Origin: Candidatus Heimdallarchaeota archaeon
GTDB taxonomy: Archaea; Asgardarchaeota; Heimdallarchaeia; Heimdallarchaeales; Kariarchaeaceae
Length of the DNA stretch: 32,000 nt
Assembly (NCBI GenBank): GCA_030149205.1
Contig: JASBSB010000006.1
Span: 90,001-122,000 of the forward strand
Direction of reading: 5' to 3'
Below the pieces are notes generated by a model. The model made no database searches, was not told the origin of the DNA, and saw only the letters and a list, made by a program, of their open reading frames with translations. The first letter of the stretch is position 1, and every line of letters begins with the position of its first letter. Both the position numbers and the translations under genes were made by a program. Below are positions 2,372 through 15,260 of the stretch, piece after piece.

Positions 2372-2622
2372 CTCTTTAGATCATCTACAAGGCTATCAAG
2401 TCTGATGGTTGTTCTCAGTAATCTAAGGGTTGAGTTAGAAAATGCTCGAAGGCTTACTAGATCAGTGGAAATTATATTGATGATTAAGGACCCACTTTTT
2501 GATATCACTTTTACCGTTGATCTGTCAGAATCATTTTGGTTATTTTCTATTTCTAATAGGTCAATTACCCTTTTCCTCATCTCTTCCTGAGGAATTAACA
2601 ATTCTATAGAAATCTTATACAT
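2368..2622 (-). CDS. pcc1: KEOPS complex subunit Pcc1
   Basis: 84 aa; C-terminal STDLVSLRAFSNSTLRLL signature; conserved superoperon position. Confidence 0.8.
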   Translation of the reverse strand: MYKISIELLIPQEEMRKRVIDLLEIENNQNDSDRSTVKVISKSGSLIINIISTDLVSLRAFSNSTLRLLRTTIRLDSLVDDLKR

Positions 2623-3133
2623 GCTTTTTCACCTTAATGTTGCAGGTAAACACTGTCTTTTTTGACCTGCTTTCCATAATTTTCAATTTTATTGTTGTGT
2701 CTATTGTGTCAATGAAAAGCCACAACCTTTTCGACTTATCTGACGTGACTTGAAGTACTTTTCTTAGAAAAAGTTGTAATTCATTATCTAAGTCTTCAAT
2801 TAACACATCTGGTAAAGAGACAGGCCCATTAGCAGGGAATGATTCCCAGCCATAGATCTGATGGTCTATGATTTTGGTTAAAGTAACATTAATTGGTAAC
2901 CGAAGCCTTGATTCATTAAGAGGAATAAACTCTAAGGTTACCTTCTGATTGTATTTTGAGCTAACTCGAACCACCAAATCTATCTTTTCATCGAAGCAGT
3001 ATGAATAAATCTCATCAACAGATCTATTTCCCTTGTTAATCTTCTGAGAATTTGGAATGAGCTTGTTGAGAATTTTTGCTGTTCTTCGACTGAGTTCAGT
3101 ACCTTTATTTCCTGTCAGGATTAAAGTTTTCAT
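2615..3133 (-). CDS. Brix/Imp4-like ribosome biogenesis protein (divergent)
   Basis: N-terminus LILTGNKGTELSRRTAKILNKLIPNSQKINKGNRSVDEI resembles archaeal Brix proteins; position between rpl37ae and pcc1 matches the conserved operon. Confidence 0.6.
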   Translation of the reverse strand: MKTLILTGNKGTELSRRTAKILNKLIPNSQKINKGNRSVDEIYSYCFDEKIDLVVRVSSKYNQKVTLEFIPLNESRLRLPINVTLTKIIDHQIYGWESFPANGPVSLPDVLIEDLDNELQLFLRKVLQVTSDKSKRLWLFIDTIDTTIKLKIMESRSKKTVFTCNIKVKKHV

Positions 3134-3504: not shown

Positions 3505-4317
3505 TTATAGGTTAAGAGCAGATTTAATTACAGATCTAAGTTCTTTTGATCGTTTGAATGAAGATTCAAAAATATCCATTAACTCTTGAGATTTAAATGC
3601 ACCAAATCCTCCCTTTTGTGCTGAGACAATATGGTCTTCAGTGAAGCCAATTGTGATTCTTGCATCACCTGCATCCTCTTCTTTGTAGCTAGGATCTGTG
3701 ATTTTAAAATCTCCAAGTTTATACGTTGTGATAGAAACTGGTATTTCCTTCAGTTTAATAGACCTTGAGGTATCAAGTTTCTCTATTTCACCCATCTCAT
3801 CTATTTTTATCTCTGGCACTTTGGTGGAGGAAAGAGCAGCAAAGGCTGCGATAGCGCAGGCATCAAATAAGTTTCCATCATGATCTAGTGGATAAATATC
3901 CAAAAATATAGTCCAAACCTTTTCTCCTTCTATTATGCATAAGTCTTCAAGATCCACACACTCTGACTCACGAATGATTCTGTCTGTGACTCTAGTTAAC
4001 TCAATTGACTCTGGACTTGGTGGACCATTTCTAAATGCTGGCGAGGCGGTAGGATTCAATTCCCCAGTAACAATTAAAGTGGCTTTATTAGGGTAGTCAT
4101 CATAAGGTTTACCTATTGATAGTTTTACACCTGCGACAACTTTTGTGTTACCCAGCTCAACAAGAGCAGATCCTTCGGCTTTCTCCACGATTCCTGTCTT
4201 TATTTTGATAGGGCGATAATCAGAAAGACCTCTCCCATCCAACCTTTTTCCCCGTTCTAGTAACGTTAGTATATAATTTCTTTCAACTGTTGATGTGACA
4301 ATTCCTTTTTCGGTCAT
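3505..4317 (-). CDS. rrp42: Exosome complex component Rrp42
   Basis: RNase PH fold: RLDGRGLSDYRPIKI, AEGSALVELGNTKVVAGVK, DHDGNLFDA; downstream of rrp41. Confidence 0.95.
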   Translation of the reverse strand: MTEKGIVTSTVERNYILTLLERGKRLDGRGLSDYRPIKIKTGIVEKAEGSALVELGNTKVVAGVKLSIGKPYDDYPNKATLIVTGELNPTASPAFRNGPPSPESIELTRVTDRIIRESECVDLEDLCIIEGEKVWTIFLDIYPLDHDGNLFDACAIAAFAALSSTKVPEIKIDEMGEIEKLDTSRSIKLKEIPVSITTYKLGDFKITDPSYKEEDAGDARITIGFTEDHIVSAQKGGFGAFKSQELMDIFESSFKRSKELRSVIKSALNL

Positions 4318-4324
4318 CTATAAT

Positions 4325-5767
4325 CTACTCCTCATACTCCATGTATTCAAGGTCTCGCTCGACCTCACGCTTTTTCTCGTCTTCCTTTGTTGACTCTTCC
4401 TTAGTCACATCTATGTTCAAGTCTCCAGTTGAGAGTTTGTTGTTCTGGAGGAGCTCCTGCATCTTTGAGCTGAAGAAACCACTCTTTGGTTTCTCCTTGT
4501 CTTTTACCTGTTCATTCTTTCTCTTTTCATAGAGTAACTCAGTCACAGACTTGACAGAACTTTCGTCAAATTGATCCCTATCTTCCTCTTCAGAGGATTG
4601 AGTTTTATCAGCTGTTTCTTCAGGTTCAGTTGTGTGTTTATTAATTTTAGTGACTAAATCGTTGGCTTCCTTTAGTGCCTCATCTATCTCATTGTATTTT
4701 TCATCAAATGAAGGCTTAGGAGATTCATCCTTAGATATTTTATCCAACGTTTCTGCAATAAGAGATTCCTTATTTATTGATGTTTCACCTTTAACAACAG
4801 TATCTTCTGATGCTTGTGATTCGGAAGAACTATCCGTTGAGGCTTCTTCCACAGGAGTCGTTTCCTTGGGTATATCAACTGTTTCTTCCTTAACTTCATC
4901 GATTTGACTCTCTTCAACAGTCACATCAGTTTCTGTCATATCCTCTGAACTCTGTTCAGGCTCCTCTGATTGCGTAGGTGATTCCACATCTGCATCTGTT
5001 ACATCTTGATTAACTGTGAGAAGAGCTGCTTTTTCATCATCCTCTTCTAATGGTTCCTCACCTAGTATGGATTGTCTAATCACATCATATTTTTTAACCA
5101 GAGCTGCTCGCTGAACTTCATCAATCTTCTTGATTGCGTCAATTGACATATTGAAACAAGTTTTAAATTGATCTAATGTGAACTTCCCATCAAGTTGTAA
5201 TAAGGACACCTCATCTAATGCAGGTGAGTATAAAATTGGACAATCACCTGTACCCTCGTTATCCTCTATTCCGCTTAGATCAAGAACACAATGGTCTTGA
5301 TACAATCCGGATGCTATACCCCCAATTAATCCCCTCATTGGAATTCCAGCATCTGCCAATGCAGCGCTGGTCGCAATTGCCGCAGCTGTACGTGAACCAC
5401 CATCTGATTGGATCATTTGCACCTGAATGTCAATGGTTGATCTTGGAAATAGTTTCGTTAGAATGATGCTTTCAAATGCTTCACTAAGTACTTTCGATAT
5501 TTCCTTCTCTCTTCTTGAAGGAATTGGGTGTTTTCTATATTCTACAGAAAAGGGGAGCATTTTATAGGTCACCTGTACTATTGCTTTTTGTGACAAAGCC
5601 ATATGCTTAGGATGCAACTCCCTTGGTCCATTTACTGCTGCAATCACCTCATTTTTTCCTAAAATAACTCGTGCAGAACCGTCTGCCCGGTGCAAAACTC
5701 CGACCTCTATTTGCAAATTTCTAAGCTCATTTGCACTTCTTCCATCGAGTCTTTCTAATTCATTCAT
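4325..5767 (-). CDS. rrp41: Exosome complex exonuclease Rrp41 with ~245-aa acidic C-terminal extension
   Basis: RLDGRSANELR, ADGSA, GPRE, PSRREKEISK, DGGSRTAA and catalytic-region EDNEGTGDCP in aa 1-235; aa 236-480 are E/D/S/T/K-rich low complexity. SD AGGAG upstream. Confidence 0.95.
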   Translation of the reverse strand: MNELERLDGRSANELRNLQIEVGVLHRADGSARVILGKNEVIAAVNGPRELHPKHMALSQKAIVQVTYKMLPFSVEYRKHPIPSRREKEISKVLSEAFESIILTKLFPRSTIDIQVQMIQSDGGSRTAAAIATSAALADAGIPMRGLIGGIASGLYQDHCVLDLSGIEDNEGTGDCPILYSPALDEVSLLQLDGKFTLDQFKTCFNMSIDAIKKIDEVQRAALVKKYDVIRQSILGEEPLEEDDEKAALLTVNQDVTDADVESPTQSEEPEQSSEDMTETDVTVEESQIDEVKEETVDIPKETTPVEEASTDSSSESQASEDTVVKGETSINKESLIAETLDKISKDESPKPSFDEKYNEIDEALKEANDLVTKINKHTTEPEETADKTQSSEEEDRDQFDESSVKSVTELLYEKRKNEQVKDKEKPKSGFFSSKMQELLQNNKLSTGDLNIDVTKEESTKEDEKKREVERDLEYMEYEE

Positions 5768-5769
5768 AT

Positions 5770-6459
5770 TTATTTCTCCTTTAAAAATTGTATAACTCTC
5801 TCGGTTAACCCAGTGACATGTGATTCTTGGATAATTTTGTCAATAGCTTCAATTACCTTAAGTTCTTTGTCAACGTTTTCTCCTCGGATCCAAACCCTAC
5901 CATTATGCCCTACAATGATTTTACAACCAGTAAATTCTTTGATTTTAGAGATCATTGATCCATTTCTTCCGATAACCCTACTAATAAGTGAAGGGTTAAT
6001 CTCTATGATTCTGCCTCCTACAAGTTTGCCTAACCCTTTTCCGGTAGTTGTTGATAACTGTGGGTCTCTGGTTCTATCAAACGTACGAATTTCAGCTCGG
6101 ATCGCATCACCTACATCAAAATACTTCCTGGCATCATCATTTATTGGGTCAAACTGGTCATTGGTTGCATTTGAAACCAATAGGATTGCAGGATATGGCC
6201 CTCCTATATCGACTTTCCAAGAAGTTAGGTTTGTTTCTTCAACAAGACCTATTACAATGTCTTTAACATTGGGAAAATATTTACCCTTCAAGGGTTTTAC
6301 TCTAATTTTGTTTTCGGTAGCTTTCTGGACTATACCAACATTATTTGCTATTGCTTTGTTCCCATTTTTGTATACACTTCCGGAGAGATTTATATTTTCT
6401 CCTTCAGCGATAATTTGACCGGGAATAACAATATCCTGTTCATTTACAAAATATTTCAT
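5770..6459 (-). CDS. rrp4: Exosome RNA-binding cap protein Rrp4
   Basis: IVIPGQ N-terminus, S1 domain (YFPNVKDIVIGLV), KH GxxG loop RVIGRNGSMI, GHNGRVW. Confidence 0.95.
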   Translation of the reverse strand: MKYFVNEQDIVIPGQIIAEGENINLSGSVYKNGNKAIANNVGIVQKATENKIRVKPLKGKYFPNVKDIVIGLVEETNLTSWKVDIGGPYPAILLVSNATNDQFDPINDDARKYFDVGDAIRAEIRTFDRTRDPQLSTTTGKGLGKLVGGRIIEINPSLISRVIGRNGSMISKIKEFTGCKIIVGHNGRVWIRGENVDKELKVIEAIDKIIQESHVTGLTERVIQFLKEK

Positions 6460-6460
6460 C

Positions 6461-7198
6461 TTAATTCCTCTTGATTACCTGAATTTGTGATTTTCCTTTT
6501 GATTTTGTGAGTACCTCTTCCATCAGTTTTGCTTGAACACCCGCAGGTATCTGTGACACAAGGGTTAAACTTCCGTCGTTTTCCCAATTTTCAGAAACGA
6601 CTTCCCCTTCATTTCGAATGGTTGAGTATAAGCTCCCTGCAAACTGAGAAGGGATTTTAAATTGAACATTTACTACCTCCATCTTTATAGGGAGTATTGA
6701 GTTGATCTCTTTTATGATGCGAATGGCTTGTTCCTTTGTAGGTTCATCTCTTGAGATATTTACTCCAGACTCATCTATTGCTTTCTCAATTCTTTCTGGT
6801 GTGTGTGGTGTTCGAGTCTTAGGATTGATGGTATTCTTAACTAAAAATGCAACTATTTCATCAATCTTCTCTTGTAAGAAACGTTTTCTCATTTCATGAG
6901 TAATAAGAAGTTCACCTTTCTTCAACATTGTTTCGGCGATCTTTCTTTCTTCTGTCGTTCCAAATGTATCCTCTAACTGTTGTTCACCTGATTTTAATCC
7001 TTTTGAAAAATTATCAAAGATTGTAAAGCTTTCGATTATCTCATCTAGTGGTACATCATCTCCTTGTTGGTACAACCAAGCTTTTTCTGGGTCTACAACT
7101 AGTTCAAACCTTTCACCTTTGAATTTATATCTTATTAATGATAAATTTCCCAGGTCTGATTGTTTATATCTTTCTCCTGGGTTTTTGTTGAATGACAT
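6461..7198 (-). CDS. sdo1: Ribosome maturation factor SBDS/Sdo1
   Basis: RYKFKGERFELVVDP, IFDNFSKGLK, NTINPKTRTPHTPERIEKAI, WENDGSL; precedes rrp4. Confidence 0.95.
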   Translation of the reverse strand: MSFNKNPGERYKQSDLGNLSLIRYKFKGERFELVVDPEKAWLYQQGDDVPLDEIIESFTIFDNFSKGLKSGEQQLEDTFGTTEERKIAETMLKKGELLITHEMRKRFLQEKIDEIVAFLVKNTINPKTRTPHTPERIEKAIDESGVNISRDEPTKEQAIRIIKEINSILPIKMEVVNVQFKIPSQFAGSLYSTIRNEGEVVSENWENDGSLTLVSQIPAGVQAKLMEEVLTKSKGKSQIQVIKRN

Positions 7199-7202
7199 AT
7201 TT

Positions 7203-7209
7203 TCACCTC
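7203..7209 (-). promoter_or_regulatory. Shine-Dalgarno site of the SBDS gene
   Basis: Minus-strand GAGGTGA 4 nt upstream of the ATG at 7198. Confidence 0.7.
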
Positions 7210-7291
7210 TTTACCCTATGAGGGGTTTTTAAATTCTATATTTTCTAAATAAATGCCCTCGTATAAAAACAAAGAGATGTAAATACGTACG

Positions 7292-7394
7292 CAGTTTAAA
7301 AATTATAGATATTCAAACACAAGGATTTCCCTATACAGCAAATTGAGAAAGAGACCCTCCCGTTTTCTGTAAGTATAAGACAGTTTAAAAATTA
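7292..7394 (+). repeat. 14-bp direct repeat CAGTTTAAAAATTA (two TATA-containing copies)
   Basis: Exact copies at 7292-7305 and 7381-7394 in the divergent SBDS/THUMP intergenic region; the second TTTAAAAA starts 28 nt before the THUMP ATG. Confidence 0.7.
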
Positions 7395-7411
7395 CAATAA
7401 TAGGTAAATTT

Positions 7412-7972
7412 ATGCTGAATTATTATCGGGGACTGCTATTAGGGTGTAGGCGAAACCTTGAAAGAGCATGTGCCTCTGAAATGAAGTACACCCTGATAAA
7501 CCACCTTGGTTATTCAAAAGACCAAATCAAAATTGGTAGAACTGGGATAAGTGGATTGGTAAGCATTAAAGTACCAGAAGATGTTAATCCAGTTGATACT
7601 CTAAGAAAATTATCAGAATTAGAGACAGAAACTCCATTTTTCGTTCATACCCTAAAAATAAGACCAATACAAATGGTTTTACAAACCAACTTAGAAGAAA
7701 TGAAATCTATGGTTAAACAGCTAAGTGAAGGGTTTGAGGGAAACTATAAGGTAGTTGTGGAAAAAAGGCACACCTCACTTGATAAAGCAATTATAATCGA
7801 TGCTGCCGCATCAGTAATAGAGCAAAATGTTGACTTATCTAATCCTGATTGGGTTGTCTTGATTGAAGTCGTCGGGTCGAAAATGGGCCTTTCAGTTGGA
7901 GCTTCTCCATTGATCTATTCAACTGACGTAGCAAAGGTTCCAAACGATACTGACACAGGATGGTTTTTATAA
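7412..7972 (+). CDS. Stand-alone THUMP-domain RNA-binding protein
   Basis: TGISGLV, HTLKIRPIQ, YKVVVEKRH and VDLSNPDWVVLIEVVG are typical of THUMP; no catalytic domain attached. Confidence 0.8.
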   Translation: MLNYYRGLLLGCRRNLERACASEMKYTLINHLGYSKDQIKIGRTGISGLVSIKVPEDVNPVDTLRKLSELETETPFFVHTLKIRPIQMVLQTNLEEMKSMVKQLSEGFEGNYKVVVEKRHTSLDKAIIIDAAASVIEQNVDLSNPDWVVLIEVVGSKMGLSVGASPLIYSTDVAKVPNDTDTGWFL

Positions 7973-11681: not shown

Positions 11682-12626
11682 GTGGAGTACTCCAGCGTAG
11701 AACCGAGTTTTAGTTTTCAAAATTGGAAATATTATGTTGATATTATGAAGCCAAGAGTGGTGTTTTTACTTGTTCTGTCTGCTGTGGCGGGGTATTTCAC
11801 AGGTGCAACAGTCACTGGCTCAATTGACTGGTTTAAGGTGTTCTTAGTTATTTTTGCAGGATATCTCTCAAGTGGGGGAGCCAACGCTGTAAATTCATGG
11901 TTTGACAGAGATATTGATAAGATAATGTACAGGACAAAACAACGACCAATACCAGAACATAAGATCTCTGCAAACAGCGCTATTCTGTGGGCTATTATTT
12001 CAATAATATTGGGGGTTGGTCTGGCTTATTTCACTTTAAATCCCTTATCAGCCTTAATGATGTTAATAGGAGCAATATGGTACTCAATATTCTACACCAT
12101 GATTCTGAAAAGGAGAACCAGATGGAATATTATATGGGGAGGATTAGCAGGAACATTTCCTGTTTATGCAGGGTGGGCAGCTGCCACGAATTCACTTTCC
12201 TATTACTTTCCATGGTTAATAGGTTTAACCGTCTGGATTTGGATTCCTCTTCATTTCTGGGCCTTGGCAATCAGATTAAGAAAAGAGTATGAAGAGGTAA
12301 ATGTTCCGATGTTGCCAGTTGTAATTGGAGTAGAAAAGACAGTCCCATATATCGCTACAGCAGGTATTTTACTCTCTCTGGTTGTAACTTTATTGATATT
12401 TATTGAAACAACAAGCTTCTTATACCTTATCCTTGTCACGCCACTTACATTATGGATGTTAAAATACACCTTAAATGTGATCAGGCAACCAACAGAAGAA
12501 AATTCTTGGAGCTTGTTTAAGGTATCAAATATCTACCTCGTCTTGGTAGATTTTATTCTAATTCTTGATGCAATATTGTTCGTTCTTTTGAAAATCCCAG
12601 CTTTCGGTTATTTCAACATCATTTGA
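11682..12626 (+). CDS. ctaB: Protoheme IX farnesyltransferase (heme O synthase)
   Basis: MKPRVVFLLV, NSWFDRDIDKIMYRTKQRPIP, YTMILKRRT, GWAA, WIPLHFWALA, EYEEVNVPMLPV; multiple TM helices; upstream of cox genes. Confidence 0.95.
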   Translation: MEYSSVEPSFSFQNWKYYVDIMKPRVVFLLVLSAVAGYFTGATVTGSIDWFKVFLVIFAGYLSSGGANAVNSWFDRDIDKIMYRTKQRPIPEHKISANSAILWAIISIILGVGLAYFTLNPLSALMMLIGAIWYSIFYTMILKRRTRWNIIWGGLAGTFPVYAGWAAATNSLSYYFPWLIGLTVWIWIPLHFWALAIRLRKEYEEVNVPMLPVVIGVEKTVPYIATAGILLSLVVTLLIFIETTSFLYLILVTPLTLWMLKYTLNVIRQPTEENSWSLFKVSNIYLVLVDFILILDAILFVLLKIPAFGYFNII

Positions 12627-12826
12627 ATCACTATACCGATATAGAGAGTTAAACAACTACCCAATTTAATTTGGAAATTGCACAATATTTAGAGGGTTTC
12701 TAATTTTTTCAATTTTCAAATATTTTTATCATTAAGATTGTACAAATTTTACTAAAAAAATTAATAATAGAATTAATTACTATTAATTCAGTATATATTT
12801 TCTATTAGTACTTATTTATTTGAAAA

Positions 12827-13039
12827 TATGTCAATTAACGCAAATCGTCTATTGGATTTTTGTAATTTTTGACATACATTTTTTTACTTGTCTTAGTATA
12901 GTCCGATATTAGCCCATCTTGATTGGGTTATTATTAGATTTTTGAAAAATAGAACCCTGTGACAATCTTTGAATCTTACAATGTCAAAAGATTAGCTTAT
13001 AAGGGAGTATTTTTAACGACGACTAACAACAAAAGGTGA
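12827..13039 (+). promoter_or_regulatory. cox operon promoter region: TGTCA/TGACA inverted repeats, TATA box and SD
   Basis: TATGTCAA (12827-34) / TTGACATA (12869-76); TGACA-N17-TGTCA (12960-86); TTATAA (12997-13002); SD AGGTGA (13034-39) before the TTG at 13044. Confidence 0.55.
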
Positions 13040-13043
13040 AAAT

Positions 13044-13724
13044 TTGAAACAGAAAGTTATTAGCTTCATTTCAATCATGGGATTCCTTATCTCAATGACC
13101 ATCAAAAATGTAAGTGGTGCTCAAGATCCTTATTATAGGACCTTTCAGTATCTTTTCGATCTTCAACTTTGGATATCGATATTTTTATTGGTGGCATTAT
13201 TGATTACTTCATTTTATCTAATGATAAAATATAGGGCGAGTAATACGGAATCAAAACACGTGAAGAACAAATTTCATTCAAGTAATTTAGAGATTTTATG
13301 GACTGTACTTGCAACAATTCTTGCATTGTGGTTATTTTTCTTAACTATAGGTCCAGTTACAACATTTGCTAAAGCAAACAATAAACATGCAGATGTAATT
13401 GTAAAGGTCAGAGGATATCAATTTTACTGGAATATCACGGTTGGAGATCAACCTTGGGTCACAGGGGTAAATTTTACCACTGGTGCATATAACAAAATTG
13501 TTTTTGATCATACCAAGACCTATCTACTGGAGATTACAGCTGATGTGGCTGGTGTGATACATAGTTTCTATGTCCCGAAACTAGGGTTTAAAGCAGATGC
13601 AGTACCAGGACACACCAACTATGTTTATTTATCAAATCTAGTGCCTGGTGTTTATGATGTAACTTGCGCAGAATTTTGTGGTGCTGGTCATTACAACATG
13701 CCTGCGAGGATAACGGTGATTTAA
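13044..13724 (+). CDS. coxB: Cytochrome c oxidase subunit II (CuA)
   Basis: Signal-like N-terminus, two TM helices, GYQFYW, VIHSFYVP, CuA motif CAEFCGAGHYNM; no C-terminal cytochrome c domain. Confidence 0.95.
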   Translation: MKQKVISFISIMGFLISMTIKNVSGAQDPYYRTFQYLFDLQLWISIFLLVALLITSFYLMIKYRASNTESKHVKNKFHSSNLEILWTVLATILALWLFFLTIGPVTTFAKANNKHADVIVKVRGYQFYWNITVGDQPWVTGVNFTTGAYNKIVFDHTKTYLLEITADVAGVIHSFYVPKLGFKADAVPGHTNYVYLSNLVPGVYDVTCAEFCGAGHYNMPARITVI

Positions 13725-15260
13725 ATGGCGACACTCAAGAGACCTTCCTATTGGTTCATGGATTACCGCAAGCTATTTGGTACCATCGATCACAAACAGA
13801 TTGGAATGCTTTACATGGTGTTTGCTGCTGTAAATCTAACAGTCGCAGGCTATTACGCACTTCTAATTAGAACAGAACTATTCAATGTTGGATTGGACGG
13901 ATTTATATCTCCTGCAAATTATGGAAGTATTTTTACAATGCATGGAACGGCGATGATCTTCTTGGTCATTATGCCAATGGGTGCTGGATTTGGGAATTAT
14001 TTGATCCCACTGATGATTGGTGCAAAAGACTTGTATTGGCCGCGATGGAACAATATCGCATTTTGGATGCTTATTCCTGGAGCTAGTTTTGTTTGGATGA
14101 GTGAAGCACCAATAGGTTGGACCGCTTATCCCCCACTGTCAACCACTGTTGATTCTACAAATCTTTGGATCATAGGTTTAATAATTGTTGGTACATCATC
14201 TATAATAGGGGCAATAAACTTCTTTTTGACCATATTTAATTTAAGAAAACCTGGGTTGGGTATGATGGATCTGGATTTATTTTCATGGGCAATCTTATTT
14301 ACCTCCTTTATTCAGTTATTTGCAACTCCTATCATTACAACTGCCTTGGTTATGCTTCTATTTGAAAGAATTGCTGGAGCTCCATTTTTTACAATCACTT
14401 ATGGCTCATCATCACTTTTATGGCAGCACATCTTTTGGAGTTACAGTCACCCTGCTGTGTACATAATGATCCTTCCTGCAATGGGAATTATATCTGTGAT
14501 TATTGGAAGATTTTCTCAGAACCATATTTTTGGTAAGTCATCAATGATTTATTCAATGGGAGCTATTACTCTATTAGGTTTCATGGTTTGGGGACATCAC
14601 AATTTCACTGCTTCTCCAAATGCGGTTCCAAATTGGTTCTTTACATTCACAACCTTCCTTATTGCAATCCCTTCTGGGATTAAAACCTTTAATTGGATAC
14701 TTACAATGTATAAGGGATCTATTCACTTCGAACCACCTCTTCTGTTTGCTCTATCATTTATCTTAGGATTTATTTTAGGAGGGTTCTCAGGAGTAATTAT
14801 AAACACAATTCCTTTAGATTATTATTTTCATGACACCTACTTTGTAGTTGGGCATTTTCACTTCATCATAATTGGTGGAGGATTATCAGCTATAATCGGA
14901 GGAATCTACTTTATTTTCCCTGACGCTACAGGAAGAATGTATAACAAAAAAGCAGCTTACGTTCATTGGGCAATCTGGACAGTGGCCTTTATTGTAACTT
15001 TTGGAGGAATGAATGTGCTTGGGTACTTGAATCAACCAAGAAGATATGTGGATTATTCTGTGCTGTCAAACTATGCAGAGCTCGAATTCTGGCATCGTGT
15101 GACCACAATTGGTGCATATTTACAGGCACTGGCTTTTCTAATCGGATTCAGCAACCTGTTCTACAGTGCAATAAAGGGTCCTAAGGTTGGTGATAAACCT
15201 TATTCAATTGAAAATCCACAATTCTGGCCCTTAGAGACCAAGGAGGAATCTAGCCAATGA
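13725..15260 (+). CDS. coxA: Cytochrome c oxidase subunit I, type A2
   Basis: DHKQIG, FTMHG, D-channel GAKD, YSHPAVY (A2 YS motif), WGHH, K-channel PSGIK, HFH. Confidence 0.97.
   Translation: MATLKRPSYWFMDYRKLFGTIDHKQIGMLYMVFAAVNLTVAGYYALLIRTELFNVGLDGFISPANYGSIFTMHGTAMIFLVIMPMGAGFGNYLIPLMIGAKDLYWPRWNNIAFWMLIPGASFVWMSEAPIGWTAYPPLSTTVDSTNLWIIGLIIVGTSSIIGAINFFLTIFNLRKPGLGMMDLDLFSWAILFTSFIQLFATPIITTALVMLLFERIAGAPFFTITYGSSSLLWQHIFWSYSHPAVYIMILPAMGIISVIIGRFSQNHIFGKSSMIYSMGAITLLGFMVWGHHNFTASPNAVPNWFFTFTTFLIAIPSGIKTFNWILTMYKGSIHFEPPLLFALSFILGFILGGFSGVIINTIPLDYYFHDTYFVVGHFHFIIIGGGLSAIIGGIYFIFPDATGRMYNKKAAYVHWAIWTVAFIVTFGGMNVLGYLNQPRRYVDYSVLSNYAELEFWHRVTTIGAYLQALAFLIGFSNLFYSAIKGPKVGDKPYSIENPQFWPLETKEESSQ

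Follow-up and report, generated by a model that had tools for sequence, protein, structure and literature searches.

Why the catalytic subunit of an archaeal exosome should carry a C-terminal tail that doubles the length of the protein is the question raised by the rrp41 gene in a 32,000-nucleotide (nt) stretch of Candidatus Heimdallarchaeota archaeon DNA (assembly GCA_030149205.1, contig JASBSB010000006.1, positions 90,001 to 122,000; hereafter the window, numbered from its first letter). What is known of the structure and biochemistry of the archaeal exosome comes entirely from tail-less Rrp41 of 240-258 amino acids (aa). Judged from the alignments and the structure prediction described below, the second half of the protein encoded here is a disordered tail with short linear motifs set in fast-drifting disorder of conserved composition, and the comparison of relatives showed selection acting, at the level of sequence, only on bulk acidity and on two or three short motifs. 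The positions of all features are collected in Table 1.

The Rrp41 core and its acidic tail

The protein was compared with Pfam and with the chains in the PDB. Pfam returned RNase_PH (PF01138) over aa 14-143 (E 1.5e-34) and RNase_PH_C (PF03725) over aa 147-210 (E 1.8e-08), both exceeding the curated cut-offs, and the best PDB matches were archaeal Rrp41 chains of 240-258 aa (E 1e-57 to 4e-67), which cover aa 4-238 of the query only. The corresponding values for the paralogues were 9e-12 (Rrp42), ~1e-12 (RNase PH) and ~1e-16 (PNPase), and by these comparisons the product is Rrp41, nearer to Rrp41 than to any of the three. The residue D175, in the segment 'GTGDCPI', aligned with the catalytic Asp that the S. 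solfataricus Rrp41 chain has in 'GEADMPI', and the residues for phosphate binding and catalysis (R85/R86, D122-G-G-x-R126 and G174-D175) were invariant across the family (alignments A1 and A2). On this residue conservation, the core is intact and would be catalytically competent. Canonical archaeal Rrp41 proteins of known structure (S. solfataricus 2BR2/2JE6/3L7Z, P. abyssi 2PNZ, A. fulgidus 2BA0, M. thermautotrophicus 2WNR and T. acidophilum 8XIE/8XFX) aligned with the core over its full length and share its Pfam domains, its active-site residues and the rrp4-rrp41-rrp42 operon; however, the solved chains end where the query core ends, and none has a 245-aa tail.

Beyond the core, the reading frame continues without interruption into the tail (aa 236-480, 245 aa; nt 4328-5062), which consists of 31% D/E, 12% K/R, 20% S/T and 24% hydrophobic residues and has a net charge of -46. 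The chance of 245 stop-free codons at the local base composition is ~1.6e-8. No tandem repeats were found in the tail DNA, and an origin of the tail from such repeats was rejected on that ground. Likewise, a scan of the genome found that 16 of 2346 long open reading frames (ORFs) reach 30% D/E or more in some stretch of 100 aa, Rrp41 being the fifth, so that acidic tails are not a proteome-wide habit, and a genome-wide tendency was rejected as an explanation. Two other ORFs, both identified by eye, are among those with the most acidic stretches of the genome: a GyrA-like ORF of 889 aa (G000:C7:153894-156560, + strand), the C-terminal 100 aa of which are 48% D/E, and a KH-domain, uS3-like ORF of 231 aa (G000:C8:200910-201602, - strand) with an acidic C-terminal tail.

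The same architecture was found in close relatives. Two genomes of the same genus (G001 and G003) encode Rrp41 of 464-486 aa, and metagenomic clusters from other sources (P0002-P0004) contain Rrp41 of 458-466 aa, in each case with the order of elements and the C-terminal motif of the query. The initial annotation of this DNA, which was made from the letters alone, had described an Rrp41 core that retains the catalytic-region Asp at aa 175 and continues in frame into an acidic tail of ~245 aa. The ORF, the Pfam and PDB alignments and the relatives bear out this description, and the tail is present and partly alignable in the close relatives.

Tail segments, their conservation and their distribution

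In order to describe the tail further, AlphaFold2 was run on Rrp41 with a 35-sequence family alignment. The predicted local distance difference test (pLDDT) score was ~90 over the core and fell below 50 for the greater part of aa 253-353 and 384-401, with isolated helices at aa 355-377 (pLDDT 61-80), 408-419, 435-443 and 461-479 (pLDDT 63-71). The region from aa 236 to 354 is thus predicted to be disordered, in agreement with the disorder proposed for the tail at the outset. Conservation was scanned by comparing each 9-mer of the tail with the tails of relatives and scoring it against shuffled tails. Outside three conserved segments, namely the islands at aa 405-420 and 426-443 and the C-terminal 16 residues, the median z was ~0. 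The initial annotation had proposed five helical islands in the tail; these three stood, while KESLIAETLDKISK and the heptad-like helix FDEKYNEIDEALKEANDLVTKINK were not conserved even within the genus and are species-specific. The pattern for which it had proposed a check, islands kept while linkers drift, was seen both in the alignments and in the 9-mer scan.

The two internal islands are, as far as the alignments go, conserved mainly within the genus. An aromatic-pair motif lies ~35-60 residues upstream of the C-terminal motif and reads W[YF]-x5-7-LKPM in most members of the family and GFFSS-x-M-x-ELL in the query genus, and the sequence LKDLYKKIK of a family subgroup resembles ELLYEKRK of the query tail. 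The consensus of the C-terminal motif over 39 protein clusters is [IV]-[MLE]-R-D-[IL]-E-[YF]-S-x-x-[ED]-[ED], and in these clusters the chain ends 8-14 residues past the motif Arg (26 in one cluster). R471, D472 and E474 were invariant in alignment A5. The codon of the motif Arg varies among genomes (CGA, CGG, AGA, CGT and AGG), as do the other codons of the motif, indicating that the constraint is on the protein and not on the DNA. The distance from the RD[IL]E[YF] codons to the stop codon downstream of them is 24-36 nt. At the very end of the gene, the final GAGGAG probably doubles as the Shine-Dalgarno site of rrp42, to judge from its position and from the relatives, in which rrp41 has a GAGGA-like end or GAGGT follows just after the stop.

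To place the motif phylogenetically, a maximum-likelihood tree of the core was used. The motif-bearing proteins fell into one clade of 54 clusters (support 100/100), in which 39 clusters have the motif and some members are named Kariarchaeaceae or Heimdallarchaeota. Outside the 39 stand the Kariarchaeum pelagius group, with only an SWF-type motif together with K/E repeats, one variant, one further motif-less cluster and one truncated record. Every complete Rrp41 gene recovered from the family has a tail, 121-250 aa long, and in the family tails compared for composition acidity is kept (26-44% D/E, net charge -28 to -62) while length (118-245 aa) and sequence drift. Across the order, tail lengths range from 13 to 250 aa, and its other lineages have KEEPK-type mixed repeats, K-rich basic tails or acidic tails with other ends. 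Among 251 genomes of the phylum, the Rrp41 open frames outside the order were mostly 245-300 aa, with 307-336 aa in two genera.

A search for longer proteins with an Rrp41 core led outside the phylum. Rrp41 of Methanosarcina (RefSeq/UniRef names; e.g. P0135 and P0142; loci L063-L098) is 451-506 aa long, and its hyperacidic low-complexity tails (124-283 aa, 40-60% D/E) finish in a nearly invariant end, GPWKVVKDPSESGSRGENDE (GPWKVVKDP...), that contains an aromatic residue. Acidic Rrp41 tails of 50-170 aa were found in Methanolobus, Methanomethylovorans, Methanohalophilus and ANME-2 (loci L100-L126); Rrp41 of Methanoperedens has no tail. The long acidic tail is therefore not an Asgard speciality, and the statement of the initial annotation that archaeal Rrp41 is normally ~240-250 aa long holds for the solved structures only, given the long acidic tails of Methanosarcina and other Methanosarcinales. 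The Methanosarcina protein shares with the query the succession of core, acidic low-complexity tail and short conserved end motif; however, it belongs to another phylum, its tail is unalignable with the Asgard one and more acidic than the 31% D/E of the query, and its end differs from xRD[IL]E[YF]. By sequence, the Methanosarcina tail arose independently of the Asgard tail, and this independent origin of the same layout argues that such tails serve the exosome itself. At least two origins, one in a Heimdallarchaeia family and one in Methanosarcina, can thus be counted for long acidic disordered arms with clade-specific conserved end motifs, and they suggest that the catalytic subunit bears a hitherto unexplored layer of regulation or recruitment. 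Since Methanosarcina is genetically tractable, the role of an acidic tail can be tested there.

Two other kinds of Rrp41 extension were also observed. The homologues P0126 and P0127 (JGI metagenome) have Gly/Arg-rich, RGG-type tails of 184-247 aa (repeat GGGFRDRDRGGG), the chemistry of which is opposite to that of the acidic tails. Two further proteins (P0125 and P0147) and a 597-aa open frame that is matched by both Rrp41 and Rrp42 (G025:C8) look like read-throughs or natural fusions of Rrp41 and Rrp42 in a single chain, and suggest that the C-terminus of Rrp41 is close to the N-terminus of the neighbouring Rrp42. No paper discussing the Asgard, Methanosarcina or RGG-type Rrp41 tails was found in the library searched, and the Rrp41 tail is a recurrent and apparently unstudied decoration of the exosome.

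Table 1. Features of the rrp41 locus, in positions of the window.
Feature	Position (nt)	Strand	Remarks
rrp41 coding sequence	4325..5767	-	480 codons; ATG start; TAG stop at 4325-4327
RNase PH catalytic core, aa 1-235	5063..5767	-	Pfam, PDB alignment, invariant columns, AlphaFold2 pLDDT ~90
Fast-drifting acidic linker, aa 236-404, mostly predicted disordered	4556..5062	-	low pLDDT; median z ~0; sequence not conserved, acidity conserved
Predicted helix, aa 355-377, hydrophobics spaced 4-3-4-3	4637..4705	-	AlphaFold2 pLDDT 61-80; hydrophobic moment 0.53; species-specific, without counterpart in genus relatives
Conserved island, aa 405-420, VKSVTELLYEKRKNEQ	4508..4555	-	z 11.7 (genus), 6.4 (family); cf. 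LKDLYKKIK of one subgroup of the family
Conserved island, aa 426-443, KPKSGFFSSKMQELLQNN	4439..4492	-	z 22.7 (genus), 5.3 (family); aromatic pair aligns with W[YF]..LKPM (alignment A5)
C-terminal motif, aa 465-480, KKREVERDLEYMEYEE	4328..4375	-	z 18 (genus), 27 (family); AlphaFold2 helix 461-479
GAGGAG, last two Glu codons of rrp41	4328..4333	-	10 nt upstream of the rrp42 ATG; read from the sequence
rrp4 (exosome cap subunit)	5770..6459	-	2 nt upstream of rrp41
rrp42 (non-catalytic ring subunit)	3505..4317	-	7 nt downstream of rrp41

Proposed role of the tail and alternative explanations

The reading that we prefer, and to which we give an even chance, is that the tail is a flexible polyanionic tether presenting short docking motifs. 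The C-terminus of Rrp41 would have been extended in the ancestor of one Heimdallarchaeia family into an intrinsically disordered acidic arm, present in three copies per ring with a charge of ~-46 each. The two motifs named as selected are the C-terminal, helix-prone [IV]xRD[IL]E[YF] of 12-16 residues with its acidic end and the aromatic pair upstream of it, and the arm would dock them on a basic RNA-binding surface of the exosome (the S1/KH cap or the basic linker of DnaG) or on an external factor. The polyanionic linker would meanwhile compete electrostatically with RNA, so that RNA access or recruitment, and not catalysis, would be what the arm tunes. The initial annotation had likewise suggested a partner-docking or RNA-mimicking module in three copies per ring, which fits the disordered tail, the kept islands and the drifting linkers, but no partner was found. 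The Asgard residues R471, D472, E474 and Y475 offer a sharply defined handle for a partner hunt.

Disordered tails are known on other proteins of RNA and DNA metabolism. The C-terminal domain of Hfq and the acidic tip of SSB are acidic auto-regulatory tails, and like the Rrp41 tail they are polyanionic and disordered, extend from a ring or oligomer that binds nucleic acid, and have a conserved tip that is acidic or aromatic; they are, however, much shorter and belong to unrelated proteins, and fold-back binding by the query tail is hypothetical. With these differences, an Hfq/SSB-type tail is a plausible working analogy. In the eukaryotic exosome, EXOSC9/Rrp45 is an RNase PH-like ring subunit with a disordered charged C-terminal tail, and is in this respect similar to the query; its tail, however, is on a non-catalytic Rrp42/Rrp45-type subunit and is not sequence-homologous. 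Eukaryotic Rrp41 chains in the PDB are 245-250 aa long.

Several results weigh against a docking tether. The pLDDT of the terminal helix is no higher than 63-71. When the source genome was scanned for proteins ending in RD[LIVM]E[YFW], the one other match was an unannotated 139-aa frame, which was taken as spurious. A profile of the last 80 aa, searched against 1.84 billion representatives, found only Rrp41 tails or fragments and one spurious low-complexity protein; since Rrp41 tails alone were found, there is no signal of a hub shared with other proteins. Within the family, the net charge of Rrp4 does not track that of the tail. Finally, the same protein has mixed K/E or K-rich basic tails in sister lineages, so that one electrostatic role cannot account for every tail.

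Other searches for partners or homologues were made. A word-index search with the tail alone returned the query itself as the sole match, a feature search of the ESM Atlas gave no usable match, and the charges of Rrp42 and of the Rrp41 core showed no clear co-variation with tail charge within the family. In a co-fold that used alignments, the tail segment aa 396-480 was combined with Rrp4, the Rrp41 core and Rrp42; its score of 0.00 is not evidence either way. The C-terminal motif was also compared with LIR/AIM-like, YxxPhi, HbYX and Mtr4 arch-interacting motifs; there was no consistent family-wide fit and none is claimed. Nop5 was considered as a partner and dropped as uninformative, its end being basic but short (~25-30 aa); the last residues that its gene encodes, at L147:1363-2520 (-) (G000:C2), are very basic, ...KRNKSNQGKKRRRQRR.

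DnaG, an exosome-associated subunit, was a further candidate. In the source genome, it is a protein of 505 aa (G000:C4:93956-95470 (-), equal to L031:640-2157 (-)) with a basic, low-complexity R/K/S/G-rich linker of ~125-145 aa (net charge about +26) leading from the TOPRIM domain to the C-terminal domain. Such basic inserts are found order-wide (~120-200 aa, net charge +11 to +34, in open frames of 464-586 aa), while the open frames elsewhere in the phylum sample are 355-463 aa and comparable inserts were not seen there. Among the Methanosarcinales, DnaG frames are longest (540-619 aa vs 399-520 aa) in the four Methanosarcina genomes in which Rrp41 is long. A correlation between Rrp41 and DnaG length across the Methanosarcinales was rejected, however: it is driven only by the Methanosarcina clade and without it rho is 0.13. 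Methanoperedens has a basic DnaG linker yet a tail-less Rrp41. These two independent co-occurrences of a long acidic Rrp41 tail with an enlarged basic DnaG linker are no more than suggestive.

These observations bear on a possible, though rather unlikely, alternative in which the tail is a pure polyanionic RNA mimic or electrostatic gate without an external partner. The arm would fold back on the S1/KH cap, the channel entrance or the DnaG linker and either auto-inhibit the exosome or sharpen its RNA selection, in the manner of the acidic Hfq and SSB tails, with the terminal motif as an intramolecular anchor. The conserved acidity, the charge of each chain and the pairing of an aromatic residue with an acidic tip in the terminal motif all speak for such a gate, as do the basic DnaG insert of the source genome and its order and the long DnaG frames of Methanosarcina, the other lineage with a very long acidic tail. 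However, each of the two co-occurrences is a single evolutionary event, the intermediate tails of other Methanosarcinales are uncorrelated with DnaG length, Methanoperedens combines a basic linker with no tail, and the Heimdall lineages with K/E or basic Rrp41 tails share the same basic DnaG insert. We consider it improbable that very long polyanionic Rrp41 tails and enlarged basic DnaG linkers form a charge-complementary, disordered outer layer of the exosome, made of three acidic arms and the basic DnaG loops, that gates RNA entry or drives condensate-like clustering of the RNA-decay machinery; if true, such a layer would be a prokaryotic parallel, in the lineage closest to eukaryotes, to disorder-based eukaryotic RNA processing.

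The initial annotation had also put forward a degradosome-like scaffold, and this was not borne out. The RNase E tail of bacteria is Arg-rich, binds RNA, has a helix that targets the membrane and offers defined sites to RhlB, enolase and PNPase. A tail of this type on Rrp41 would organise several enzymes (a helicase and other nucleases) and/or use the GFFSS helix as a membrane anchor for the exosome. The two are alike in that a ribonuclease is extended by a long disordered region in which drifting linkers separate short conserved microdomains; the basic residues that flank the GFFSS..ELL island in the genus relatives also speak for such a scaffold. There is no homology, however, and the query tail is acidic, lacks Arg-rich RNA-binding segments and has two or three conserved islands, two of the five proposed being species-specific. 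Within the genus the GFFSS..ELL island is conserved, but as a helix it would be only weakly amphipathic (low hydrophobic moment, 0.26-0.28), and the rest of the family has in its place a W[YF]..LKPMGG motif that contains Pro and Gly. An arm with a charge of -46 would, moreover, be repelled by anionic membranes, and no partner enzyme is indicated. Taken together, these points make an RNase E-type scaffold very unlikely.

Little credence, similarly, can be given to a largely neutral expansion of low-complexity sequence at a solvent-exposed C-terminus, in which the very end would be conserved because it overlaps the ribosome-binding site of rrp42. The free drift of the linker in sequence and length would be expected of such an expansion, as would the flips of tail type between acidic, K/E and basic among lineages, and the final GAGGAG does lie 10 nt before the rrp42 start. 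However, the RD[IL]E[YF] codons, 24-36 nt ahead of the stop, vary synonymously while their residues are invariant, the frame is open for ~120-250 codons in every family member against a chance of ~1e-8 for 245 codons, acidity is conserved, and the same layout evolved independently in Methanosarcina. Pure neutrality is contradicted by the conservation of motif and reading frame. An assembly or annotation artefact, with a lost stop or a chimeric join near aa 235-245, is effectively refuted, because independent same-genus assemblies, from other samples and sources, encode the identical architecture in one continuous ORF with the end motif in frame with the core.

The exosome operon and its surroundings

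The genes around rrp41 follow the order SBDS-rrp4-rrp41-rrp42-L37ae, all co-oriented, which is the usual archaeal arrangement, and a prefoldin gene lies further downstream. The Rrp42 encoded beside rrp41 carries no tail. In the region 6461-7972 of the window, SBDS is the first gene of the operon, and its upstream neighbour is a divergent gene on the + strand for a THUMP-domain protein. In archaea, the proteasome alpha gene often heads the exosome superoperon; here it is not at the head, since the divergent THUMP-domain gene occupies the upstream position. Directly after L37ae is an ORF of 172 aa (2615-3133, - strand) without a Pfam match at E<=0.01; the position after L37ae is usually occupied in archaeal exosome superoperons by a Brix/Imp4-like gene. 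Elsewhere in the window, a UbiA prenyltransferase gene is followed by genes for heme-copper oxidase subunits II and I (COX2 and COX1; E 1e-132) at 11682-15260 on the + strand, which are consistent with aerobic respiration in the source Heimdallarchaeia lineage.

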